Below are positions 150 through 25,008 of a stretch of DNA of 32,000 nt, one piece after another. Position numbers and translations under genes: made by a program. The notes beneath the pieces were generated by a model, which worked only from the letters and a program-made list of their open reading frames with translations, searched no databases and was not told where the DNA came from. Every line of letters begins with the position of its first letter. The stretch's first letter is position 1. This DNA comes from Methanolobus psychrotolerans (GTDB lineage Archaea; Halobacteriota; Methanosarcinia; Methanosarcinales; Methanosarcinaceae), in the NCBI RefSeq assembly GCF_002243045.1, contig NZ_MBKP01000045.1, positions 10,740-42,739 of the forward strand, written 5' to 3'.

Positions 150-1241
150 CTATACCTTCCCGGAAATTGATTTTCTTGTAGATATTACTTTACTCGACGG
201 GTTATTGGAAGATACTGTTTTGACATCCTTTACAGCCCCTGCAATTACAGGCCTGGTACCTGCTGCTTCCTTCCCTGAAACTGCAGCAAACACTACCATA
301 GAACTGGCAACCACAATATCAATCACTGCACCTACGCCCACATACTCACCAGAAGGTACAGACTGTCTGAGAACAGTCCCCGACTTTGAAGAGTCAGCCT
401 GTTCAGTCACTTTTCCGAGAGTAAGTTTTCCTGTTTCCAGAGTCTTCTTGGCAGCTTCCTGAGTCATTCCGACAACATTGGGAACTGCAACGGACATTAT
501 TTTAGACATAACCATATCCACGGCATCCCCGGGTTTTGCAACCGAGCTACCCGAAGGTATCTGGGACAGAACCGTTCCCTGAACAAGACTGCTGTCCTTT
601 TCAATAACCTCACCCTGCACAAAACCTGCATCCTTTAATATAGATACAGCGGCATCAATATCCAGCCCAAGCACATCAGGTACATCCACATAACCGGAGA
701 ACACAGGTTCTTTAAATGACGGTTTTATAGTGAATTCAACCTGGCTAAGGTTATCAGCAGGAATAACATCATCCGCTTTTGGAAGCTGGAAGCGTAATTC
801 ATTATCCTGAACAGCGATATTCGTCCTTAGTTTGATGTTCATGGAACTTACACTATAACTTACCCTTGATGACCCAGTATTCATACTTTCATCCATCTGC
901 TCAAGGGAGTCACGGAATGCCTTCACAAGATTTGCAGAAGACAGGTGTGGCCTTGTACGTGAAAGTTGTTCCAGTTTCTTCTCAACCTCAGCCTTCTCTT
1001 TCAATAGCTCCCGTACCCTGACATTAAGAATGGAATAATCCTGTTCCAAAATAAGATTTTGCCTTTTTACCTGCTCCAGTACCTCATTCTTAGATGAGAG
1101 TTCTTTCCGGGCAGCCTCAAATTCAGATTCTATCGTCACAATGTTCTTCTGGATCAGTTCATAGCTCTGATTTTTCAATGCAACTGTAGTTGACTTGTTT
1201 AAACGTTCAATATTCTGCCTGAGTTCTTTAATGTCGCTCAT
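150..1241 (-). CDS. Coiled-coil protein with two C-terminal PASTA-like domains and no visible signal peptide or TM helix
   Basis: I chose ATG at 1241 (MSDIKELRQNIERL...) because it is preceded by GGAGGGGTGG. The N-terminal ~100 aa are heptad-like and rich in E/K/L. Two ~65-aa units match the PASTA pattern: VDVPDVLGLDIDAAVSILKDAGF..GTVLSQIPSGSSVAKPGDAVDMVMS and VAVPNVVGMTQEAAKKTLETGKL..GTVLRQSVPSGEYVGVGAVIDIVVA. Confidence 0.7.
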   Translation of the reverse strand: MSDIKELRQNIERLNKSTTVALKNQSYELIQKNIVTIESEFEAARKELSSKNEVLEQVKRQNLILEQDYSILNVRVRELLKEKAEVEKKLEQLSRTRPHLSSANLVKAFRDSLEQMDESMNTGSSRVSYSVSSMNIKLRTNIAVQDNELRFQLPKADDVIPADNLSQVEFTIKPSFKEPVFSGYVDVPDVLGLDIDAAVSILKDAGFVQGEVIEKDSSLVQGTVLSQIPSGSSVAKPGDAVDMVMSKIMSVAVPNVVGMTQEAAKKTLETGKLTLGKVTEQADSSKSGTVLRQSVPSGEYVGVGAVIDIVVASSMVVFAAVSGKEAAGTRPVIAGAVKDVKTVSSNNPSSKVISTRKSISGKV

Positions 1242-1257
1242 TCCACCCCTCCATAGA

Positions 1258-1665
1258 TCATTCTTCCACATTCCTGGAAGACGGAGGAACTGATACTATT
1301 TTGGCCTTAAGAACACTTGAACCCTCTACAGCATATGAATTAAGTGAATTATAGGAAGCATTCAAAGGTGCTGCATTAAGGACTGGTCTGTATCCCCTTA
1401 CACGATTCTTTGAATCCCTTTCTTCCTCATATTTCATTGACAGGGCCATTTTAAGCTCAATATCCACTTCCGGTATATGATACCATGTGGCTTCCAGATT
1501 ATATTCATTAAGTACTTCATCAGTGGAAAGTTCAATCTGGGTATCAATGGAATTGCGGTCAAGTGCTCTTTGTGTCTGTGCAATGGACTTACCCATTTCA
1601 CTCAATATGGTTGAAAGCGGACTGACAAGAACCTCTTCAATATTCTCGCTACCAATAGATGGCAA
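1258..1665 (-). CDS. Hypothetical protein, the short paralog of the 203-aa protein encoded upstream
   Basis: TTG start at 1665 lies 6 nt after a GGAGGT Shine-Dalgarno-like site. It shares motifs with ORF 1742..2353: EM..IA..Q.ALD.NSI, IE[LV]KM..SMK, NA.Y.S.Y and a VPP tail. Confidence 0.7.
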   Translation of the reverse strand: MPSIGSENIEEVLVSPLSTILSEMGKSIAQTQRALDRNSIDTQIELSTDEVLNEYNLEATWYHIPEVDIELKMALSMKYEEERDSKNRVRGYRPVLNAAPLNASYNSLNSYAVEGSSVLKAKIVSVPPSSRNVEE

Positions 1666-4126: not shown

Positions 4127-4723
4127 TCATCCCTGTACCTGGGACCTGCCCAGTTCAAATGCTTTTATATTAATATCGATCGTTTTTTGAGGGACCAGTT
4201 CCCTGACACATTCAAGCAGGGTTTCAACAGGTATTGGCAGGTAATTTGAGACAGCACCCACCATGACAACATTCATGGACTGTGCATGTCCTGCCTCTTT
4301 TGCAAGCTCAGTGGCGTTGAAAGCTTTAACTTCATGGGTCTCTTTGAGTTTTAAAATAATAGTAGCAACATCCGGATAAGTGCATAAACCTGAAGTTACA
4401 GTTACCGGAAGTATTGGATCAGTATTCACTATTATGACACCATCATCGGAAAGATACTCAAGATACCTCAATGCCTCACTCGGTTCAAGGGCAAACAGTA
4501 CATCTGCACCTTTCAGAGGGATCATGGAACCAAGTTCACAACCAAGTCTTATGTGATTAACTACAGAACCGCCACGCTGTGCCATTCCGTGAGTTTCTGC
4601 TGCACGCACAGGCATGTTTTCCTTCACAGCTGCCTTTCCTATGATATCGGATGCAAGTATAGCACCCTGTCCACCAACGCCGGCGATGACAAGGTCAAAT
4701 TGGGATATTCCGGGCGCACTCAT
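4127..4723 (-). CDS. iorB: Indolepyruvate:ferredoxin oxidoreductase, beta subunit
   Basis: I chose ATG at 4723 (MSAPGISQFDLVIAGVGGQGA...). It overlaps the iorA TGA in an ATGA arrangement. The sequence shows a pyruvate/ketoisovalerate oxidoreductase gamma-type fold pattern (GVGGQG, AETHGMAQRGG). Confidence 0.85.
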   Translation of the reverse strand: MSAPGISQFDLVIAGVGGQGAILASDIIGKAAVKENMPVRAAETHGMAQRGGSVVNHIRLGCELGSMIPLKGADVLFALEPSEALRYLEYLSDDGVIIVNTDPILPVTVTSGLCTYPDVATIILKLKETHEVKAFNATELAKEAGHAQSMNVVMVGAVSNYLPIPVETLLECVRELVPQKTIDINIKAFELGRSQVQG

Positions 4724-6549
4724 TTCTTCACCTCCGAGATAGCATCGAACTTGCACATGCGGGAACATACTCCACAGCCAGTGCACATGTTATTGATAGA
4801 TGCCTTTTTGGACTTTCCATCAAATTCAATTGCAGGGCAACCTAGATTTACACATATCCTACAGCCCGTACATTTGTCAGCATCGATAGTAAATGGCTTC
4901 CTTCGAACACCGGCACGTTTTGCATCGATGACACAATACTGTCTGGTAATGACAACAGACGTACCTTTATAACTTTTTGCCCTTTTGAAGACCTCTTCAG
5001 TCTGCTGAAGGTCATAAGGATCTACAACTTCCACAAACTCCGCACCAAGTCCTCTGCATAGGGCTTCAAGAGATACTTCCACTGTTTGCTCACCTGTTGC
5101 AGTCATACCCATTCCTGGATTTGGCTGATGACCGGTCATTGCGGTTATACGGTTGTCCACGATGGTTACGGTGATGTCAGCTTTATTATAGATTGCATTG
5201 AGCAGGCCGTTCATACCTGTGTGGAAGAATGTGGAGTCACCAATTGAACAGCATATAGGTTTTTTCTCCCCGGCCTGGTACATCCCACTTGCAACAGTTA
5301 TACTTCCACCCATACAAAGCGTGGTATCAACTGTACCACTCTGGATCCCTAGAGTGTAACAACCGATATCGCTCGGGAAGATGGCATCCTTACCATACAC
5401 TTTTTTCATGACGTGGAAAGTTGCCCTGTGAGAGCATCCCGGACACATGACAGGAGGACGCATAGGAAGGTCGATCCTGCATGCATTGTAATCAAAATCT
5501 TCTCCTACATCAGCCGGAACATCAGTCCTTTCAAGTCCGAGGACTTCTGCAAGGACATCTGCACATATATCGGTGTTCAGCTCGAACACTCTTGGAACAG
5601 GACCCTGCATCTTGCCGGTTATTTCCACTCCTGAACCTGCCTGCTGTGCTATTATCCTGACCTGCTCTTCAACGACAGGCTCCATTTCCTCGAAAACAAG
5701 AACGCGATCTGAATTCTCAATGATGGTCCGGATCTTGTGCTCAGGAACAGGATAGGTGCCTATCTTGAGGAATGAGGCGTTTATACCCAGTTTAATGAGT
5801 GCTTCTTTAGCATAGACAGAAGCAATTCCTGATGCTATGACACCGAGCTTTGCACCTTCCCGGATTTCCAGCTCGTTCCAGGGAGAATCCTCGAGTTCCC
5901 TGAGGATGTCCTTTTGCAGTTCAAGCAGGTGAACATGCTGCACCCTGGCATTCTTAGGGACCATTACCCATCTTTCGAGTTCCTTCCGGAAGTCTGCCAC
6001 AGGCTTTGTTTCATTTACAGGTCCAAGTTCCACATCGGATTTCCCATGAGAGATACGTGTTGTGGGCCTGAAAATAACAGGCATCTGAACCTTATTCGAT
6101 AACTCGAATGCATAGGTTATCATGTCCTTTGCTTCCTGTGGTGTTGACGGGTCCAGACATGGAATAAGTGAAAATTGTGAGTACCTGCGGGTGTCCTGCT
6201 CATTCTGCGATGAATGGCATGAAGGGTCATCTGCAACAATTATTATCATACTACCCTTGACACCCGTGTATGCGAGAGTCATTAACGGGTCTGCTGCAAC
6301 GTTAAGCCCGACATGCTTCATGGTGACTACGGAACGCACACCAGCCATCGCAGCACCGGCTGCCACTTCAAAGGCAACCTTCTCATTGACCGACCACTCT
6401 ACGTAAAAATCCCTTTCCTTCATTGCTGCCAGTGTACCGATAATCTCAGATGACGGTGTCCCAGGATACCCGGATATGACCTGTCCGCCACCTTCCACGA
6501 TACCGCGTGCAATTGCAACGTTTCCCAGCATGTACTCGCGTGTGCTCAT
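4720..6549 (-). CDS. iorA: Indolepyruvate:ferredoxin oxidoreductase, alpha subunit
   Basis: 609-aa ORF with AGGAG upstream of the ATG. It has a TPP-binding GDSTFFHTG motif and two C-terminal 4Fe-4S motifs (CTGCRICVNLGCP, CTGCGVCSRMC). Confidence 0.9.
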   Translation of the reverse strand: MSTREYMLGNVAIARGIVEGGGQVISGYPGTPSSEIIGTLAAMKERDFYVEWSVNEKVAFEVAAGAAMAGVRSVVTMKHVGLNVAADPLMTLAYTGVKGSMIIIVADDPSCHSSQNEQDTRRYSQFSLIPCLDPSTPQEAKDMITYAFELSNKVQMPVIFRPTTRISHGKSDVELGPVNETKPVADFRKELERWVMVPKNARVQHVHLLELQKDILRELEDSPWNELEIREGAKLGVIASGIASVYAKEALIKLGINASFLKIGTYPVPEHKIRTIIENSDRVLVFEEMEPVVEEQVRIIAQQAGSGVEITGKMQGPVPRVFELNTDICADVLAEVLGLERTDVPADVGEDFDYNACRIDLPMRPPVMCPGCSHRATFHVMKKVYGKDAIFPSDIGCYTLGIQSGTVDTTLCMGGSITVASGMYQAGEKKPICCSIGDSTFFHTGMNGLLNAIYNKADITVTIVDNRITAMTGHQPNPGMGMTATGEQTVEVSLEALCRGLGAEFVEVVDPYDLQQTEEVFKRAKSYKGTSVVITRQYCVIDAKRAGVRRKPFTIDADKCTGCRICVNLGCPAIEFDGKSKKASINNMCTGCGVCSRMCKFDAISEVKK

Positions 6550-6665
6550 GATAATCTCCTGCTAGCCCTTACTTAATAATTAGTGATAAAGATATCTAAG
6601 AAAAACAGAATCGTGTTACTGTGTGACAGAGGAAGAGGATTTGATGTTTTTAAAGAAAAGTGATT
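6513..6665. repeat. Direct repeat copy 1: the functional iorA 5' end (first ~12 codons), RBS, 5' leader and a TTTAAAAA TATA-like box
   Basis: Aligns with 7146-7295. The core 6531-6575 is identical to 7167-7211 (45 bp). The flanks are diverged, with a 7-bp indel and scattered substitutions. Confidence 0.85.
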
Positions 6666-6886
6666 GGTTTCATATACCCTTGTGAATTATCAAAACAGTC
6701 CTGTTTAATTTACATGTTATGTAAAGCCACCTTTACTTAGAAGTCTGCTCAACATTCTAAGTAAAGGATTCTTTGCTTAGAACAAAGAATAGCACTGAAA
6801 AATCAGAAAAAATAAATATGATATTCTCATGATTGACCCGCAAAAGAAACATTACATTTATACAGAATCAAAACGGATTAAATAAT

Positions 6887-7132
6887 ATGAGTTCATCAGC
6901 GGACATTGAGAACATGCTTCACAATATTGATAATGAACTGCACACAATCCTCAGCATGCTCAGGAAAAAGAGTACAACAGACCCAAAAGAAATTGTAGAA
7001 TCATCTCTGGGAGCATGGGATTTTGATATTGATAGCGAAGAGTTTGTAGATAAACTCAGGAAATCCTCATGCACCGTTCATGGAAGAGGGAAAACGAGTA
7101 ATCGCTTTTCCTTATTCACCGATAGGGACTAG
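6887..7132 (+). CDS. Small hypothetical protein (81 aa), possibly an orphan antitoxin-like protein
   Basis: This is the ATG-initiated part of track ORF 6833..7132. The segment SLGAWDFDIDSEEFVDKLRKS resembles the G.WK...D.EEF...LR tail common in small archaeal PIN-associated antitoxins. There is no partner gene. The ORF ends 14 bp before the repeat junction. Confidence 0.35.
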   Translation: MSSSADIENMLHNIDNELHTILSMLRKKSTTDPKEIVESSLGAWDFDIDSEEFVDKLRKSSCTVHGRGKTSNRFSLFTDRD

Positions 7133-7185
7133 GCATTTGTATTCATTTGCAACGTTTTCCAGCGCCTGTACTCGCGTGTGCTCAT
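7129..7185 (-). pseudogene. Truncated duplicate of the iorA 5' end (18-codon remnant)
   Basis: It reads MSTREY, identical to the iorA start, then shifts frame through an indel and stops at TAG (7129-7131). It is preceded by the duplicated RBS, leader and TATA-like box. Confidence 0.75.
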
Positions 7186-7295
7186 GATAATCTCCTGCTA
7201 GCCCTTACTTATTGATAAAAACATCTAAGAAATACAGAATCGTGTTACTGTGTGATAGAAGAGGAGGAATTTGGTTGCATTTTTAAAAAATAGAA
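7146..7295. repeat. Direct repeat copy 2: diverged duplicate of the iorA 5' end and promoter region
   Basis: See the entry for 6513-6665. The 45-bp perfect core is 7167-7211. The copy lies immediately downstream (minus-strand sense) of the DGR terminator region. Confidence 0.85.
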
Positions 7296-7382: not shown

Positions 7383-7486
7383 AGTCTTGCTTTTTGTCCA
7401 ATTAACTGGCACTGGGTCGTGGTCTGGTCATTATCATTGCTCTGGAACATTATCCCTGAACAACGTTCTTCCGGCAAGATACTGAG

Positions 7487-7614
7487 CTGAGAAGACGGAA
7501 ACCGATGTTGTTGTTGCTGTTGTCCGGGTTGTTGTTGTTGCGATTTGCTGACCGACAGTTCCTGGCGTTGTTGTTCCAGCTACCGCCACGTTTGACCCGG
7601 TTGGAGCTACTTCC
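7487..7614 (-). repeat. DGR template repeat (TR), non-coding, 128 bp
   Basis: It aligns without gaps to 9626-9753. On the minus strand it holds 13 AAC and 1 AAT codons in the VR frame. All 17 differences from the VR fall on TR adenines. It begins 5 nt after the RT stop codon. Confidence 0.95.
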
Positions 7615-7619
7615 GATCA

Positions 7620-8630
7620 CTAACCCTGAAAGTACATCCTGTTGAAGATGTCTTTCCTTAGATGATAGGTATTCCCGATTTTTAAGTGTTCCGTGATGCT
7701 CATGATAGATCGTGTGTACGTCTCTTCGGAAATTAGACCTTCCAAAAACTCATTATGTCTCAATTTCAACTTTTTCAGCGCCCTTCTTTTGTTTTCCTGC
7801 TTTATACGAAGGAGGTGCGGAAATATCCTGCATCCGAGGAACGACAATCCCTGGGAAACCGGAGCAATGACCGTTGCTGTTGCCTTGAGTTCCAGTTTAA
7901 GTTCCGTTCTCAGGAAATCATTGATGAAGGAGTGAAGAAGGTGCAATTCCTCTTTTTCGTCTGCGAAGAGGATGAAATCGTCCATATACCTGAGGTAATA
8001 CCTGACCCTGAGAGTATCTTTCACATAGTGATCGAGACTGTTGAGATAAAAATTAGCGAAATGCTGGCTTGTAAGATTGCCTATGGGGATGCCCTTTCCG
8101 GGGATATCGGACTGCGGGGAGTCAATAATAGTGTGCAGAAGCCATAGAAGATCAGGGTCCTTGAACTTTGTAGAGAACATTGCTTTTAAGATGCTTTGGT
8201 CAATGGTTTCGAAGAACTTCCTGATATCACATTTAAGAAAATACTTATTCTTGCGGGAATAAGTCTGAGCCTGTTTTATGGCGCGATGCGTCCCTTTACC
8301 TGTCCTGCAGGCATAGCTGTGATAAATGTAGCTCTTTTCCAGCAGGGGTTCGATGATCCGGCACAGAGCATGATGCACTACCCTGTCCCTGATGTCCGAC
8401 GCAGCTATTTCCCTGAGTTTAGGCTCCCTAATCTGGAATCTTCTCAATGGACGTGGTGCGTATGTCCGGTTAAGGAGTTCTTCCTGCAGGCACAAAAGCT
8501 CGGTTTCCATGTTGAAATAAAACTGTGATACCCTTGCCCTGTCTTTCTTGCCCTTGATAGCCGTTTTTGCAGCGGCGTGGAGGTTATCGAAAGATGTTAT
8601 TTCCGGGTACAGGTTGCCATAGCGCTTCAA
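7620..8630 (-). CDS. DGR-type reverse transcriptase
   Basis: 336-aa ORF with RT motifs: [13 protein letters not shown], the catalytic YMDDF, and the DGR-diagnostic IGNLTSQ ([ILV]G...SQ where group II intron RTs have QG...SP). The N-terminus [26 protein letters not shown] is typical of DGR RTs. The start is TTG, overlapping the avd TGA as TTGA. The gene ends with the tandem stops TAG TGA. Confidence 0.92.
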
Positions 8631-8971
8631 GCCTGTGCACTTCCCCTGAGCCAGGCACCAGTCATCCTGCCCACCTCGTTGATGTGTATCATTGCATATT
8701 CGAACTGTTTGTTGGAGAGATAATGTTGTTCATGGCAGATGCGCAGGAGTATCCTGAGCTTCTCGAACTTGATATTGATCATCTTAAAGCCGGTTTTCCT
8801 TGCATATGTATCGTATCTGAACTCGATGATGTCTTCAAGTATGTCAAGAGCAAGGTTGTCTATTCGTGTGGTAAAAGTGAACCTCACTTTTTTAGGGAAT
8901 TTCTCAGTAGTATTGAGCAGCCATTTCAGAAAATCCGTCCACTTGACAAATAACTGCAGTTCGTCATCCAT
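8627..8971 (-). CDS. avd: Accessory variability determinant (Avd), four-helix-bundle family
   Basis: I chose ATG at 8971 (MDDELQLFVKWTDFLKWLL..EKFPKKVRFTF..RID..ALDILEDII....LRILLRICHEQHYLS...EVGRMTGAWLR). The pattern matches Avd / 23S-IVS four-helix-bundle proteins. The gene overlaps the HRDC gene end by 8 nt. Confidence 0.8.
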   Translation of the reverse strand: MDDELQLFVKWTDFLKWLLNTTEKFPKKVRFTFTTRIDNLALDILEDIIEFRYDTYARKTGFKMINIKFEKLRILLRICHEQHYLSNKQFEYAMIHINEVGRMTGAWLRGSAQA

Positions 8972-9470
8972 CCTCCGGCTCCTCCTCCTTCGTTTCCTCT
9001 GCAACCTGCTGACCGTGCGATGCGATTATCCCGAGGATGTCCCTGCCGTATTTTTCCGTCTTCCCCTTGCCGATGCCCTCGATGGCCTGCAGGGCATTGA
9101 GCGACAAGGGCCGCGTCACCGCGACCTTGGCAAGCTGCATATTGTTGCATATTATGTAAGGCGGCACTCCCTCCTCCTTGCTCCTTTCAGCTCTCCACTC
9201 CCGGAGCACCTTGAACAGCGGCCAGTCATTTTCGCTCAGTATCTTCTTGTACCCTTCGTCTTTGTTTTCCTGCTGCTTCCGGGCATTGCCACCTTCCGAA
9301 GGTACAAGCTGCGTATATTCAACAAGCACGGTCCAGAAGTACTCATTCTTGCGCTCAAAAAAGTTGCTTTCCCATCTCAGAATATCCTTGTCCGCAAGAA
9401 AGTTGCACATCGCAGCGTCCGGGAAACTCTCGGACTTTTCCTCATACTTGATGGTGAATATTTTGAGCAT
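8964..9470 (-). CDS. HRDC-domain DGR accessory protein
   Basis: 168-aa ORF. The C-terminal half matches the HRDC pattern (LFKVLREWRAERSKEEGVPPYIICNNMQLAKVAVTRPLSLNALQAIEGIGKGKTEKYGRDIL). I do not recognise the N-terminal ~70 aa. Confidence 0.8.
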   Translation of the reverse strand: MLKIFTIKYEEKSESFPDAAMCNFLADKDILRWESNFFERKNEYFWTVLVEYTQLVPSEGGNARKQQENKDEGYKKILSENDWPLFKVLREWRAERSKEEGVPPYIICNNMQLAKVAVTRPLSLNALQAIEGIGKGKTEKYGRDILGIIASHGQQVAEETKEEEPEDG

Positions 9471-9495
9471 GCTTTTTTTCTCACAATAGATTTTT

Positions 9496-9556
9496 GGCGC
9501 GGCTTGCGCACCTCGCCTGTGCGGCTACGCACGCACCTGCTCGGGCTTCAGCCGCA
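9496..9556 (-). other. GC-rich structured island between the VR/target stop and the HRDC gene
   Basis: This ~60-bp stretch is very GC-rich within an AT-rich spacer. GCGGCT occurs twice (9499-9504, 9521-9526) and its complement AGCCGC occurs at 9550-9555, giving a 7-bp stem TGCGGCT/AGCCGCA. GCACCT.GC is also directly repeated. Confidence 0.4.
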
Positions 9557-9615
9557 TTTTTTCTTTTGTAAAGTAATTTTTCAATAAAGTTGTAAAGTGG
9601 TAAAGCAGTAAGTGG

Positions 9616-11829
9616 CTACACTGCCCTGAGAAGACGGAAACCGATGCTGTCGCTGCTGCAGTCCGGGTTGCTGCCGTTGCGACTTGCTGACCGACAGTAC
9701 CTGGCGTCGCTGACCCAGCTACCGCCACGTCTGACCCGGCCGGAGCTACTTCCATCTTCCCAGGCACTACCATCAGTAGGTGCATTCTCATAAGAATCAT
9801 GCCACCTGTCCTGGCACCATTCCCAGACATTGCCGTGCATATCATACAAACCCCAGGGATTCGGCTTCTTCTGACCAACAGGATGTGTCTTATCTCCTGA
9901 ATTACCACCATACCAGGCATAATCTCCAAGTTTTGATTCACTATCCCCAAATGAATACCTCGTGGTCGTGCCTGCCCTTGCAGCATACTCCCACTCAGCT
10001 TCAGATGGAAGGCGGTACTTGTCCGTGCCTTCCTTTGCGTTCAGCTTCTTGACGAACTCCTGTACATCATTCCATGAAACCTGTTCAACAGGATTATTGT
10101 CACCTTTAAAACGCGATGGATTGTTACCCATTATCTCAACCCACTGCTCCTGAGTCACTTCATACTTGCCAAGATAGTAGGCCTTCCCGATGGTCACTTC
10201 GTGAACGGGTCTTTCATCGGAATCTCCATCATCTGAACCCATCTCAAACTCGCCCGCCGGAATCAGCACGAACTCCATGCCAATGGAGTTGGTGTAGGTC
10301 TTGGGGGTGGTCTGCTTACTGGCAGTTGAGGTAGCTTTCTCCTCGGTGACCGCGGGTGTGGTTTGAGTAACGGCTGGTGAAGGATTGGCGGCCGCAAGCT
10401 CAGCCTCAGTAGCAGCCGGTGAAGGATCAACGACCTCGGTCTTCTGGGGAACAACAGCATTCTGATTCCCTGAATTGTCCGCCAGCAGCGGCGAGAACAT
10501 CCAGTAGCCTGCAATAACGATAATGATCAATACGGGAATAAAAAGCAATTTACGGCCTGCATTTCTCTCCTTGGGAGGCGCAACAGGCCGCCTCACGGGA
10601 GCGGGGGCTGGCTTTGAGGGCACCGATACCGGCGGGACAACTGTCGGCTTCGGGGCCTGTTGCTCCCTTTCCAGCGATCTTTTTGCTGAATCCTGCCACT
10701 TGCGGAACTCTTCTTCTTCTTTTCTCTTTTTCTCAGCTTCCAGGACTTTTCTTTGCTCCTCCTCTTTTCTGCGCCGCGCTCTTTCTTCCTCTTCTCTGGC
10801 AGCTTTCAGGCGGGCGGCTTCCTGAGCCTTGCGTTCTTCCTCTCTCCTGCGCCGCTCCACTTCCTCCTTCTCACGGCGCTCCTGCTCTTCCCGTTCCCTG
10901 TGCAGGCGCTCTTCTTCTTTTCTAGCGGCGTCTGCTTTTATGGTAGTGTGCTGCACGACACTGTCCTGCACATTGACAGATGCAGAGGAAGACTCCATTC
11001 CGCTTCTCTGCACGACGCTGTCCCTTACGTTCATTGAGGACGGACCGCCGTCCATGGAAAAGTTGCTGCGCTGGACCACGGAATCTATGATATTGATGAC
11101 CTGTTCGTGCCGGATGACGCCGATCTCCCTTGCGGACCTTACAGTGCTCACAAGGTGCTTGAGTTCGGAGACGATCTCATTGAGAAAACCCTGCAGGCCG
11201 TGAGTTTTATCGGATACTGCACGCAGCATCACCTGGGTCTGTCCTTCCTTTCCTTTTATCAGGACAGTAAGCAAGTAATACGCCTTCTCACCGATGGATT
11301 CACTGGACAGATACAGAATTCTGCCGCCATCCACAGAGCGCTCTTCAACTTTGTACAGGCGATTGGTGCAGGTCTGCATCAGGAATGACAGCACCTGATC
11401 CACACTTACACCCTCAAAATTCATGCCGGCTTCCGCCGAGTGACCACCGGAGGAAAGTTCCAGGAACCTGCCTGTGCCCATGGACATTGCACGCAGGAAA
11501 GGACAAACACAGTGAATTTCCTTACGGCGCATGCTGAGCAGATGCTTTTCATACTCATGATCGTTATACTTGACAGTGGCTTCGATGTATTCTTTATGAA
11601 CACAGCCCAGAGGTTTGAGTACGAATTTAGCAGTACGTTCCTTTGCAGGCGGAATATTGCCAAGTTTCTGTATCCTGTCATCCTGTAAGCTGAAAAGAGA
11701 TTCGGGGTAATCCAGGATGATCTCAACTTCCAAAATGGCAGCAGTGCTATTGTTGATCACTCTTATTCCAAACCTCACACTATTGTCAGGCAGGACTTCA
11801 TAACCCCGTTTGATCTCAATATCTGCCAT
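9616..11829 (-). CDS. DGR target protein. Domain order: cytoplasmic N-terminal domain, charged coiled coil, TM helix, T/P/A linker, FGE-sulfatase (C-type-lectin fold) domain.
   Basis: 737-aa ORF.
- The C-terminal ~230 aa match the FGE-sulfatase/SUMF1 pattern (RPVHEVTI..YEVTQEQW..VSWNDVQEFVKKLN..YRLPSEAEWEYAARAG..NPWGLYDMHGNVWEWCQD..RGGSW).
- There is one hydrophobic helix (LLFIPVLIIIVIAGYWMF) preceded by KERNAGRK.
- An E/R/K-rich segment covers ~10690-10930.
- A triple repeat of DSVVQRS is present. Confidence 0.9.
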   Translation of the reverse strand: MADIEIKRGYEVLPDNSVRFGIRVINNSTAAILEVEIILDYPESLFSLQDDRIQKLGNIPPAKERTAKFVLKPLGCVHKEYIEATVKYNDHEYEKHLLSMRRKEIHCVCPFLRAMSMGTGRFLELSSGGHSAEAGMNFEGVSVDQVLSFLMQTCTNRLYKVEERSVDGGRILYLSSESIGEKAYYLLTVLIKGKEGQTQVMLRAVSDKTHGLQGFLNEIVSELKHLVSTVRSAREIGVIRHEQVINIIDSVVQRSNFSMDGGPSSMNVRDSVVQRSGMESSSASVNVQDSVVQHTTIKADAARKEEERLHREREEQERREKEEVERRRREEERKAQEAARLKAAREEEERARRRKEEEQRKVLEAEKKRKEEEEFRKWQDSAKRSLEREQQAPKPTVVPPVSVPSKPAPAPVRRPVAPPKERNAGRKLLFIPVLIIIVIAGYWMFSPLLADNSGNQNAVVPQKTEVVDPSPAATEAELAAANPSPAVTQTTPAVTEEKATSTASKQTTPKTYTNSIGMEFVLIPAGEFEMGSDDGDSDERPVHEVTIGKAYYLGKYEVTQEQWVEIMGNNPSRFKGDNNPVEQVSWNDVQEFVKKLNAKEGTDKYRLPSEAEWEYAARAGTTTRYSFGDSESKLGDYAWYGGNSGDKTHPVGQKKPNPWGLYDMHGNVWEWCQDRWHDSYENAPTDGSAWEDGSSSGRVRRGGSWVSDARYCRSASRNGSNPDCSSDSIGFRLLRAV
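9626..9753 (-). repeat. DGR variable repeat (VR), the last 43 codons of the target gene
   Basis: 128 bp, 111/128 identical to the TR. All 17 differences are at TR adenines (14 A->G, 3 A->T on the coding strand). It encodes GSSSGRVRRGGSWVSDARYCRSASRNGSNPDCSSDSIGFRLL. Confidence 0.95.
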
Positions 11830-22796: not shown

Positions 22797-23030
22797 AGTT
22801 ATCACTACAAAGTTGTTATCAAATATATGATAGAGAAGTGATTGTAGTGCTATAATGGTTGCGCTTTGGTTGTTGGAAGAGAGGATACTGATTTGTTGAG
22901 AAAGGAGATTCTTGCTATTGACTATACCGAATGGAAGGAAATAGGAGTCTCAAAAGGACTCTCCATTAGATGAAGAAGAATACTGAAGCTGATAACCCGG
23001 TTACTCCAAGTGCTCATGTTAGAAGAAGGT

Positions 23031-23282
23031 CTATTTATAGATCAGTAAACGGAAAAGCCCTTTCGATGGCTTGTAAATCCTATCTGGGAAGTTTTTGACA
23101 AGTTTCCAGATGCACCCGTTGACCGTTTTCGGATGAAAAGTTGGATCTGATGCCTTGATCTTTGAGAGCAGTTCTGACCAATGCAGACCTTCTGGATGCA
23201 TCTCGAGTAATTCAAATGCTTTTGCGTTTATACGTTCAGTGACTTTGGATGATTGCATACTTGGTTTTGGTGTTTCTTCCAT
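23031..23282 (-). CDS. Small winged-helix-like protein (83 aa)
   Basis: I chose ATG at 23282 (MEETPKPS...). The segment AFELLEMHPEGLHWSELLSKIKA...TVNGCIWKLVKNFPDRIYKPSKGLFRL resembles Mrr-N/winged-helix modules. The longer track ORF N-terminus is AT-rich and looks like nonsense. Confidence 0.45.
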   Translation of the reverse strand: MEETPKPSMQSSKVTERINAKAFELLEMHPEGLHWSELLSKIKASDPTFHPKTVNGCIWKLVKNFPDRIYKPSKGLFRLLIYK

Positions 23283-23483
23283 GCAAAAGTTATTCACTTT
23301 TATATCAATAAATATTTTGTTGAAAGCCAGCACAAATCTAAATTTAATGGGGAAGCAGGAATACTGGAAAGAAAACATGTTAAAGCTGAATCTATTGTTT
23401 ACATCGGCAAAGAAGCCAATAACATTGATGAGCAGGTTCTTGATGTGAAGAAAGCTCAGGAGTTTATCAACAAGCAAGAGATT

Positions 23484-23645
23484 ATGGATAGTATTCTCAA
23501 CCTATCGGTATCTGAAGCTAAGGAGTTAGGAGTTTCTAAGACTACATTGTGGGATATGCATAGAATAATAAGGGAAACTGGGGAATTGAATTTGAATACT
23601 CAGGCAGTGAAAAAATTAACATATAGTTCTATTTCTGAATCTTAA
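23484..23645 (+). CDS. Short HTH-like ORF or gene fragment (53 aa)
   Basis: MDSILNLSVSEAKELGVSKTTLWDMHRIIRE has a generic helix-turn-helix pattern. No ATG lies further upstream in this frame. A related fragment (EILAIDYTEWKEIGVSKGLSIR*) lies at about 22903-22971 on the plus strand. Confidence 0.3.
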   Translation: MDSILNLSVSEAKELGVSKTTLWDMHRIIRETGELNLNTQAVKKLTYSSISES

Positions 23646-23732
23646 AGAAATTAATTTCATTGATATTTATTTTAATGCTTTCAAGAACCTTTTCTATGAA
23701 GGTTTTTTCATTGGCTATTTCATCAACCATAT

Positions 23733-23951
23733 TTAAAAAGTAATCTCGATCCGCATTTTAACTTTTTCAAAGTCTCCAAGTATTATATCTGACTTAGAAG
23801 CCGATAAACGACATTTTGCAGATTCAAGTTCAAAAGATACTTTTACTTTTCGTGCATGCTGTTTTGAAATTTTTCCCCTTACTACAAAAAAGGTATCTAT
23901 TAGATCATAAAATGCTTCTTTTGAATATCCTGTAAGGTTTGCTTCACCCAC
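23733..23951 (-). CDS. Hypothetical small ORF, possibly a C-terminal gene fragment
   Basis: 72-aa ORF with a non-ATG start and no recognisable family, in an AT-rich, gene-poor context. Confidence 0.2.
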   Translation of the reverse strand: MGEANLTGYSKEAFYDLIDTFFVVRGKISKQHARKVKVSFELESAKCRLSASKSDIILGDFEKVKMRIEITF

Positions 23952-24361
23952 TACATTATGGAGAGTTTTACGTGCCTCAATATGTCAGTACACTGTTGTA
24001 ATATATTTACCTTGATATTATATCTAACTTTCCATTTTGAAAGCCATTATAAAATAAAAAAGAGTTCCATTTTTCTGATTTTTTTGATGTCTGTGAATAG
24101 TGTATATTATAGTTTAAAGTTCCGTTTTTTACAGTTACCTATATCCCAAGCCTATTGTGCGACAATGCTAATTTGAACAAAATAATGTGCTTTTATCATC
24201 ATCTAGAAAATCTGTTTTACCACAATCATCAAAACGTGAAGAAATATATTTTCTATTTTAGTCGGATTTCTCTAAAAACAAAGCTTTCCTAATTATCCCA
24301 AAAATAAATCCTGGATGGTCACTTAACCATCCCCAGAACATTCCCAATTCAAACCAAATCA

Positions 24362-24820
24362 TCAAAAACCGAACAATGATGATACTTTCATGACCACATT
24401 GGCAACGGTGTACTTCACAGAATTTACAAAACCTACAGGCTCAATTACGATTTCGCCATTGTCCTTTGCAGCAATGAACTCCTTCAATGGGTCTGACGAT
24501 CTAATGATTGATCTTACCGTAGCTTCATTTGCTCCTACGATCATCGTTGCATCAAAATCCGTGTCCTCGTCAACTTCTTCAAAATAAGTGATGTATGCGT
24601 CTTCTGTAATCGCCTTAATGTATTTCTCTTCACCATCGTCGGTAACAATTACCAGTTTGATAACCTCATTCCCTAAGAGAGATTCAAGGTAAGAAGGCAC
24701 ATATTCGGCATTCGCATTATATTCATTGACCTTGATATCGAGATCATAAACTATATCAGCACTTGCAACCGGTATAAGTATCGTTAACAATAACATTAAT
24801 ATGACTTGTATTTTTTTCAT
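24362..24820 (-). CDS. Secreted/exported hypothetical protein
   Basis: AAGGAGTGA lies upstream of the ATG. The N-terminal signal-peptide-like segment MKKIQVILMLLLTILIPVASA is followed by an acidic, beta-rich sequence. Confidence 0.65.
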   Translation of the reverse strand: MKKIQVILMLLLTILIPVASADIVYDLDIKVNEYNANAEYVPSYLESLLGNEVIKLVIVTDDGEEKYIKAITEDAYITYFEEVDEDTDFDATMIVGANEATVRSIIRSSDPLKEFIAAKDNGEIVIEPVGFVNSVKYTVANVVMKVSSLFGF

Positions 24821-25008
24821 TCACTCACTCCTTTTTTAATTTTTTTTCAAATACATATCTCTGTGAAAAAGAGATACAGAACAATTGCATAATTTCCAGA
24901 ACACCCTTACTCACAATATGCTATAATTCTAGTTATACATTTTTGTATAATCTCAAAATATTAAGAATAAGTAATAATAAAAAGTACAATAATCTTCATT
25001 CTGGGCTT

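Follow-up and report, generated by a model that had tools for sequence, protein, structure and literature searches.

The 32,000-nt stretch of the Methanolobus psychrotolerans genome analyzed here (hereafter the window) carries a compact diversity-generating retroelement (DGR) on its minus strand. The target gene is the first gene of the cassette, and is followed by genes for an HRDC-domain protein, the accessory variability determinant (Avd) and the reverse transcriptase (RT), and by the template repeat (TR). In window coordinates, the parts are:

9616..11829, minus strand: DGR target gene, 737-aa type II membrane protein (longest reading frame in the region; domain and topology analysis)
9620..9753, minus strand: variable repeat (VR), 134 nt, aa 693-737 of the target (TR/VR alignment)
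8964..9470, minus strand: HRDC-domain accessory protein, 168 aa (PF00570, E 5.5e-21)
8627..9004, minus strand: Avd, 125 aa (PF22296; NF033474, E 2e-29)
7620..8630, minus strand: DGR RT, 336 aa (PF00078; LTSQHFAN and YMDD motifs in the translation)
7481..7614, minus strand: TR, 134 nt, 6 nt downstream of the RT stop codon

Every part of the cassette is supported by Pfam and NCBIfam profiles, and the Avd scores 101.9 bits against NF033474 (cut-off 80). All 17 substitutions in the body of the repeats fall on TR adenines (14 A>G, 3 A>T, 0 A>C); the two mismatches at other bases are confined to the 3' boundary, the point of divergence between TR and VR. Confinement to adenines has a probability by chance of about 4e-10, all 19 mismatches counted. 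The TR features 15 diversifiable codons of the AAY or AAA type (13 AAC, 1 AAT, 1 AAA), and 13 codons are changed in the VR (697, 700, 706-708, 711, 716, 719, 720, 724, 726-728), the same count reported in an initial annotation of this DNA made from the sequence alone. The VR ends 4 nt ahead of the target stop codon, its last ~27 nt being invariant and similar to an initiation of mutagenic homology (IMH) site; beyond this point TR and VR diverge. Adenine-only TR/VR differences, a DGR-type RT and an Avd beside the TR, and a VR closing the target gene with an IMH-like end identify the cassette as a DGR. The element is complete (target, HRDC, Avd, RT, TR) and, since the window holds housekeeping genes of M. 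psychrotolerans, chromosomal, in a methanogen of the Methanosarcinaceae. A hairpin was searched for downstream of the VR, and none was found. No match to Rfam was obtained, and PADLOC returned generic RT, AAA and HRDC matches only, the target matching no model.

The target protein is made of modules arranged as follows:

11485..11829, minus strand: beta-sandwich (Ig-like) subdomain, aa 1-115 (AlphaFold2 pLDDT >85 in each 10-residue block; Foldseek)
11110..11484, minus strand: TBP-like/helix-grip platform subdomain, aa 116-240 (AlphaFold2 of the piece alone, pLDDT 91.5; invariant C154)
10930..11109, minus strand: helix and three DSVVQ(R/H)(S/T) motifs, aa 241-300 (motifs 2 and 3 of low confidence, probably disordered)
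10654..10929, minus strand: E/R/K-rich segment, aa 301-392, probable single alpha-helix spacer (composition)
10549..10653, minus strand: Pro-rich segment, aa 393-427, ending in the basic juxtamembrane KERNAGRK
10495..10548, minus strand: single transmembrane (TM) helix, aa 428-445, LLFIPVLIIIVIAGYWMF (Kyte-Doolittle peak 2.45; no other segment >1.4)
10276..10494, minus strand: T/P/A/S-rich stalk, extracellular, aa 446-518
9619..10275, minus strand: FGE-sulfatase-type C-lectin-fold domain, aa 519-737 (PF03781; TvpA 2y3c)

Most of this layout had been read from the translation in the initial annotation, and was confirmed here. The hydrophobic segment at aa 428-445 is the only one in the protein, and is preceded by the Pro-rich stretch with KERNAGRK and followed by 60 residues rich in T/P/A/S. 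The DSVVQRS repeats reported are exact at aa 249 and aa 270, and read DSVVQHT at aa 289. The sole correction concerns the segment at aa 301-392, described earlier as a charged coiled coil. It is E/R/K-rich (68%), as claimed, and probably helical; because it features 41 opposite-charge pairs in i/i+4 spacing and only 8 hydrophobic residues, the coiled coil was rejected on composition, and an ER/K single alpha-helix fits better.

The target lacks a signal peptide and has one TM helix only. The 15 residues at the N-terminal side of the helix include 6 K/R and 1 acidic residue, those at the C-terminal side no K/R and 1 acidic residue. Because of these features, including the strong positive-inside charge bias, an N-in/C-out topology has good support, with the lectin domain outside and the N-terminal module in the cytoplasm, the orientation suggested from the start. 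Homologues of both domain orders, described below, place the module on the cytoplasmic side as well, and lend independent support to the same topology. At ~1.5 Å per residue, the ER/K helix (~90 residues) would keep the module an estimated 10 nm or more off the membrane.

The C-terminal domain is an FGE-subtype C-lectin DGR variable domain, with the VR in the canonical place. The FGE-sulfatase/CLec fold, already assigned to it from the translation, was recovered by PF03781, which matches aa 519-735 (E 6e-55). The best PDB sequence relative is TvpA of Treponema denticola (2y3c, E 1.5e-41), which has the same FGE-subtype C-lectin fold and a VR at the extreme C-terminus; the two VRs are in register, and align residue for residue. 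Aligned with FGE 6muj, the domain has S707, a diversified position, in place of the first Cys of the catalytic C..C pair, and keeps the second (C712). The Cys pair of catalytic FGEs is thus incomplete, and NCBIfam enzyme models score far under their cut-offs. Since one catalytic Cys is replaced by a diversified Ser, the domain is regarded as a binder, not an enzyme. TvpA, a single-domain bacterial lipoprotein, is not known to have a TM helix, cytoplasmic module or ER/K spacer; the window protein differs from it in having all three. The variable residues of TvpA are solvent-exposed (PMC6328139), and by homology those of the window protein are probably exposed on a binding face.

For aa 1-300, no sequence match was found in Pfam, NCBIfam or the PDB, either with the single sequence or with profiles, apart from low-complexity or chance matches; Pfam and NCBIfam gave no family even at E<=10, as expected from the earlier remark that the ~300-aa N-terminus has no nameable family. 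The fold was modelled by AlphaFold2 from an alignment of module homologues (pLDDT 85 over aa 1-300). The model begins with a beta-sandwich at aa 1-115, in line with the beta-sandwich-like start noted before, and continues with an alpha/beta domain (aa 119-228). The first DSVVQRS motif lies in the helix that comes next, motifs 2 and 3 in a stretch that is probably disordered. In Foldseek searches against the PDB, the top 14 matches are the appendages of alpha-adaptin, beta2-adaptin and beta-/gamma-COP, followed by BBS9; E values of the AP2, COPI and BBS9 ears range from 1e-9 to 1e-5, and the appendage alignments cover ~235 columns across both subdomains. The order typical of adaptin and COPI appendages, a beta-sandwich followed by a TBP-like platform, is found both in the model and in the Foldseek alignments. 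The TM-score of the whole module to these appendages is only 0.41-0.49, so that the relative orientation of the two subdomains differs from that of adaptin ears. When modelled alone (pLDDT 91.5), the platform best matches the beta2-adaptin appendage (1e42_A; TM-score 0.63, rmsd 3.2 Å, 111 columns, 20% identity), and also the AP-4 beta ear, among generic helix-grip/TBP-like folds. TRAP, complement MG and GH20 domains were set aside as fold relatives, as their matches span the beta-sandwich only.

Membership in the Alpha_adaptinC2, B2-adapt-app_C or COP-gamma platform families is not indicated by any Pfam match even at E<=10, and the family profile has no PDB match. Given this lack of sequence-family signal, the module is called appendage-like, and is not filed as a member of the adaptin ears. 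The models indicate that it is adaptin-appendage-like at the fold level, and make homology to adaptin ears plausible. Like the ears, the module terminates a long linker, a position that presumably makes interaction hubs of both. In contrast to the ears, which are found at the C-terminus of a HEAT trunk, the module is at the N-terminus of a membrane protein, has no sequence similarity to them, and features conserved C76, H78, C107 and C154. Conserved Cys and His residues of the beta-sandwich are C76, H78, H106, C107 and C109, C154 being invariant in the platform. The C76/H78/C107/C154 set suggests, from conservation, a putative structural metal site; adaptin ears are not known to have such a Cys/His cluster.

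Homologues of the module (n=167; 46-71% identity) reside in Methanolobus, Methanosarcina, Methanoperedens, ANME-2, Ethanoperedens and one member of the Methanophagales. In an exhaustive profile search, which returned 825 cluster representatives, the family is restricted to Methanosarcinales. Conserved motifs are IKRGYEVLP, KPLGCxHK, KEVHCVCPF, GEKAYYLLT and INIIDSVVQR, and the window protein holds every invariant column. Two main layouts are recognized. In layout A the module is followed by a linker, a TM helix and an ectodomain of the FGE-sulfatase, ricin, CARDB, FKBP, cupredoxin or pilin-like type. In layout B a signal peptide precedes the ectodomain (TPM, PQQ/WD40 propeller, S-layer, LamG), the TM helix and the module, and the protein often ends with DSVVQRS and a zinc ribbon. 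Soluble fusions of the module to a zinc ribbon or to TPR also occur. Judged from these architectures, the module would be a cytoplasmic tag on many membrane proteins, predicted in all to lie on the cytoplasmic side of diverse ectodomains. The data support a conserved, independently folding family, and a functional unit rather than an anchor.

The first DSVVQRS motif is nearly invariant across the module family. The sequence (V/I)xDSVVQRSxIG was also found outside the window protein, in many exported or membrane proteins, between a divergent module copy and a C-terminal zinc ribbon (examples are L003:7707-9830, L003:11235-12923, L048:1548-4451 and L019:5450-7378; numbers preceded by L denote loci), and in L061:9434-10507 the motif comes after an N-terminal zinc ribbon. 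DSVVQRS may represent a linear motif, or else belong to a zinc-ribbon unit; that the motifs are candidate ligands of the ear-like module is a speculation. Matches to MIT in module proteins (7/66) were judged possible TPR cross-matches, and were not used. Several module proteins (P0032, P0044, P0058, P0103, P0109, P0110, P0117) are named 'glycine betaine/proline transport system substrate-binding protein' by JGI/UniRef, and no such domain is detectable in them. The name looks like a propagated mis-annotation, and the proteins may be related to the 'ProX' gene of the Meth_adaptin loci (PMC11188069) described below.

Species-representative genomes encode at least 23 further full-length proteins with the complete module-TM-lectin architecture, whose lectin domains are 60-76% identical to that of the window protein. 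No RT, Avd, HRDC or TR copy was found within 10 kb of any of them. Codon usage was analyzed in 30 lectin-domain homologues, orthologues and paralogues alike, with no DGR within 10 kb, at the columns corresponding to AAY/AAA codons of the window TR. Mean entropy at these columns is 3.0 bits, vs 0.94 in the rest of the domain (p 1e-10) and 1.19 at the interleaved VR positions (p 4e-8). The third base is C in 282 of the 389 VR-equivalent codons (72%; 25% background), where 125 are expected from same-amino-acid codon usage; in several relatives 13/13 codons end in C. Residues that cannot be reached from AAC (K/E/Q/M/W) are depleted, measuring 6.7% at VR-equivalent codons vs 23.5% elsewhere. Examples, among the lectin genes of loci L005-L073, are L012:5983-7602, L017:10001-12070, L042:1-2382 and L064:9941-11887. 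Two proteins encoded on separate contigs of one Methanoperedens metagenome-assembled genome have VR tails identical at 128/150 positions, differing mainly at codon positions 1 and 2. Methanosarcina orthologues have near-identical VRs and a decayed footprint. Hypervariable columns, C-ending codons and depletion of K/E/Q/M/W together amount to a footprint of adenine mutagenesis. The pattern, as read from codons, implies a family serviced as a whole, now or in a recent past, by DGRs located elsewhere; these would be remote or recently lost. Module-TM-lectin proteins form an old family, of which the window holds the form with a DGR encoded in cis.

In L018, L046 and L053, a gene for a Vps4-like ATPase precedes the module-lectin gene by 8-63 nt; in L012, L040 and L061 the two are within 10 kb of each other. 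Module-lectin genes located directly downstream of such ATPases belong to Methanoperedens and ANME-2. The Vps4-like proteins feature AAA and Vps4_C domains over the Pfam gathering score, and a weak MIT match. Some carry a C-terminal DisA-type diadenylate cyclase (DAC) domain (L018:8253-9938, L053:14485-16167, L046:11831-13630, L012:932-2725, L076:13356-15059), in part together with Vps4_C; no description of Vps4-DAC fusions in archaea was found in the literature searched. A conserved gene for a ~203-aa helical protein is always ahead of the Vps4-like genes, and an SPFH-double-zinc-ribbon gene is nearby.

These neighbourhoods recall the Meth_adaptin ESCRT loci described with Methanosalsum zhilinae as model, which encode Vps4, ESCRT-III, SPFH-zinc-ribbon and adaptin-appendage-region (IG+TBP) proteins, one appendage protein being fused via a TM linker to a GOLD ectodomain (Makarova et al. 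2024, PMC11188069). Neither lectin/sulfatase domains nor retroelements are mentioned in that study. Meth_adaptin proteins such as WP_013898578.1 (appendage-TM-GOLD), also from Methanosarcinaceae, resemble the window protein in layout, with cytoplasmic IG+TBP, a TM linker and an ectodomain, and relatives of the window protein likewise adjoin a Vps4-like ATPase and an SPFH-zinc-ribbon gene. They differ from it in that the window ectodomain is a DGR-diversified lectin, not GOLD, and that the window gene is not in a locus of this kind: the Vps4, ESCRT-III and SPFH-zinc-ribbon genes that accompany appendage-region genes in Meth_adaptin loci are missing from the window.

RTs ~60-70% identical to the window RT were found in other DGR cassettes with the same HRDC-Avd-RT order; the HRDC gene is kept in the same position in the related DGRs of L074-L076, L080 and L081. 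These cassettes diversify lectin domains 65-70% identical to that of the window protein, joined to other N-termini. Their targets include a TIR-lectin protein beside TIR-STAND-TPR and SLATT genes, caspase-like-lectin proteins with or without a TM helix, and a lectin protein encoded near a KAP NTPase gene. In the target of the sister DGR in L076, an unknown domain and an ER/K helix precede the lectin, and a Vps4-like-DAC gene lies 4 kb away. More distant relatives (RT ~43% identical) target a kinase-TM-lectin protein (L126) with a lectin ~49% identical. None of the 86 related RT loci has a DGR targeting the module. The cassette of L081 (RT 61% identical) has two caspase-like-lectin targets, L081:2646-4589 and L081:5182-6960. 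One has a TM helix and a lectin predicted outside; the other has none and is predicted to be cytoplasmic. Between them, the two lectins could sample the outside and the cytoplasm.

The best reading of the target protein, to which we assign a probability of roughly 0.55, is that of a surface receptor programmable by the DGR, whose cytoplasmic part is an adaptor-like hub; a link to an ESCRT-like system is drawn from relatives and not from this genome. The adjacent DGR would rewrite the lectin domain at up to 15 AAY/AAA codons, giving a programmable ligand-binding face displayed on the T/P/A stalk. The ER/K helix and the Pro-rich segment would hold the ear-like module away from the membrane, where it would act, with moderate support, as a protein-protein interaction hub, as adaptin ears do. 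By analogy with the latter, the hub may link ligand bound by the variable ectodomain to cytoplasmic partners. In related genera the partners would most plausibly be the Vps4-like AAA ATPase system, the 200-aa helical protein and the SPFH-zinc-ribbon protein, and membrane remodelling would then sort, cluster or shed the receptor together with its ligand. As the budding driven by ESCRT-type machineries is directed away from the cytoplasm, the predicted outcome is that receptors with bound ligand are sorted into vesicles and shed, or else local repair or abscission of the membrane. A connection of the hub to Vps4-type remodelling in M. psychrotolerans itself is suggested weakly.

Several observations weigh against this reading. 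The likeness to adaptin ears is at the fold level only, without sequence or Pfam signal, and the helix-grip platform is a common fold generally. The ~203-aa helical protein was not confirmed as ESCRT-III (Snf7), having no Pfam or PDB profile match, and all members of its family that were found belong to uncultured ANME, Methanoperedens and Methanosarcinales, none to Methanolobus. The 32-kb window contains no Vps4-like, ESCRT-III-like or SPFH-zinc-ribbon gene; extending the contig through the edge genes added no ESCRT-type genes, and none were found in the neighbourhoods of two Methanolobus paralogues (L001, L002). A Vps4-like gene is within 10 kb in only 6/32 lectin-bearing loci. As to present activity of the DGR, the only second copy of the locus found (L004, in another assembly) has an identical VR, and a metagenome pattern scan for VR variants gave 0 matches; the identity in L004 is weakly informative, since the sequencing run may be of the same strain. 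Finally, the DGR clade to which the cassette belongs diversifies TIR-, caspase-like and STAND-linked lectins, a company that points as much to defence sensing.

A defence sensor is a possible alternative, held at low probability. Viruses or foreign cells would be detected by the variable ectodomain, and the module would relay the signal to an effector, such as a Vps4-like-DAC protein making c-di-AMP. Multicellular bacteria would offer a parallel in their TIR, caspase, STAND and kinase sensors, which DGRs diversify, and the concept of receptor-like DGR targets and DGR-diversified conflict sensors is already published (PMC7159879, PMC10907252). In its favour, the TIR-lectin, the caspase-like-lectin and the lectin near the KAP NTPase gene are targets of the closest cassettes (RT 61-66% identical), with lectins close to that of the window, and the Vps4-like ATPases beside relatives are fused to DAC domains. 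On the other hand, the target has no PADLOC match, no effector gene is nearby in the window, and the module has no enzymatic signature. Bacterial DGR conflict sensors (Kaur et al. 2020; Dore et al. 2024; Vallota-Eastman et al. 2020) combine, like the window protein, a signalling or effector part at the N-terminus with a DGR lectin at the C-terminus, and in some a TM helix places the lectin outside. They differ in that the N-terminus of the window protein is non-enzymatic, adaptor-like and confined to Methanosarcinales, the host is an archaeon, and no MoxR/vWA or STAND partner is nearby. A sensor role is equally compatible with the company kept by this DGR clade, and sensor and sorting receptor could coincide.

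Most cellular DGR targets are membrane-anchored binders interpreted as adhesins (PMC8144416), and no signalling partner is encoded in the window. A plain variable adhesin, the lectin attaching to particles, partner cells or polymers and the cytoplasmic part only anchoring or oligomerizing the protein, is nevertheless unlikely. Mere anchoring would hardly require 260 aa conserved at 46-71% identity between genera; the module also recurs with over 10 types of ectodomain, is fused to zinc ribbons, TPR and propellers, and its genes repeatedly adjoin those of Vps4-like ATPases. The conserved module family, the varied ectodomains and the Vps4-like neighbours found elsewhere thus favour a receptor coupled to an intracellular module, preferred over a simple adhesin also in the initial annotation. 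Least probable of all, and very unlikely, is a relic, that is an inactive cassette whose protein is now a fixed member of the module-TM-lectin family: the L004 VR, the lack of metagenome variants and of a hairpin downstream of the VR, the skewed substitutions and the near-fixed VRs of Methanosarcina speak for it, but all cassette open reading frames (ORFs) are intact, with a catalytic YMDD and a DGR-type SQ motif, the TR keeps all 15 diversifiable codons, with no non-adenine TR/VR drift over 107 nt, 13/13 AAC-derived codons still end in C, and L004 may be the same strain.

Each of the components is known already: lectin targets of DGRs, receptor-like targets (kinase-, caspase- and TIR-lectin) and archaeal adaptin-like proteins. 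In the literature searched, no report was found of a combination of DGR lectin and adaptin-like module, of a family-wide footprint without a local DGR, or of lectin genes behind Vps4-like(-DAC) genes.

Other features were observed in the window. A direct repeat of ~115 nt, 86-94% identical, is found at 6528-6642 and 7164-7271, just outside the DGR on its TR side. The first copy covers the start codon, and the sequence upstream, of a pyruvate/indolepyruvate-oxidoreductase-type gene (4720-6549, minus strand), and the two copies flank a 99-aa ORF (6833-7132, plus strand) without family match. The repeat may be the scar of an insertion or duplication. The target gene region (9001-11000) measures 52-54% G+C, vs 40-46% in the flanking housekeeping genes, due either to horizontal acquisition of the cassette or to the composition of the E/R/K- and T/P/A-rich segments. 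A 373-aa protein encoded at 150-1271 (minus strand) has two PASTA domains (E 7e-22); PASTA is mainly a bacterial peptidoglycan-sensing domain, unusual in a methanogen. The intervals 22806-24361 and 23001-25000 measure 32-35% G+C in a background of 40-50%, and contain no ORF of at least 150 aa and no Rfam or tRNA match.

The target protein of M. psychrotolerans joins two questions, the roles of cellular DGR targets and the cargo of euryarchaeal Vps4/ESCRT-type loci. A hypervariable extracellular binder is paired with a predicted ear-like cytoplasmic hub, and relatives occupy operon-like positions after Vps4-like ATPases. As the codon footprint is found in relatives without a nearby DGR, remote-target archaeal DGRs may be much commoner than reported in cis-based surveys. 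M. psychrotolerans is, as we understand, a cultivated methanogen, so that VR dynamics, localization, partners of the module and vesicle content are directly testable. Tentatively, Methanosarcinales may possess a receptor-adaptor-remodelling pathway like eukaryotic cargo sorting, in which DGR-rewritten receptors, the ear-like hub and a Vps4-like, partly c-di-AMP-linked machinery would capture, cluster or shed into vesicles ligands of an open-ended range, such as viruses, partner cells or particles; given the family-wide footprint, the system would be lineage-wide, mostly with remote DGRs acting in trans. An ear-like IG+TBP module that commonly tags archaeal membrane proteins on the cytoplasmic side would bear, at the fold level, on the origin of eukaryotic coat adaptors.

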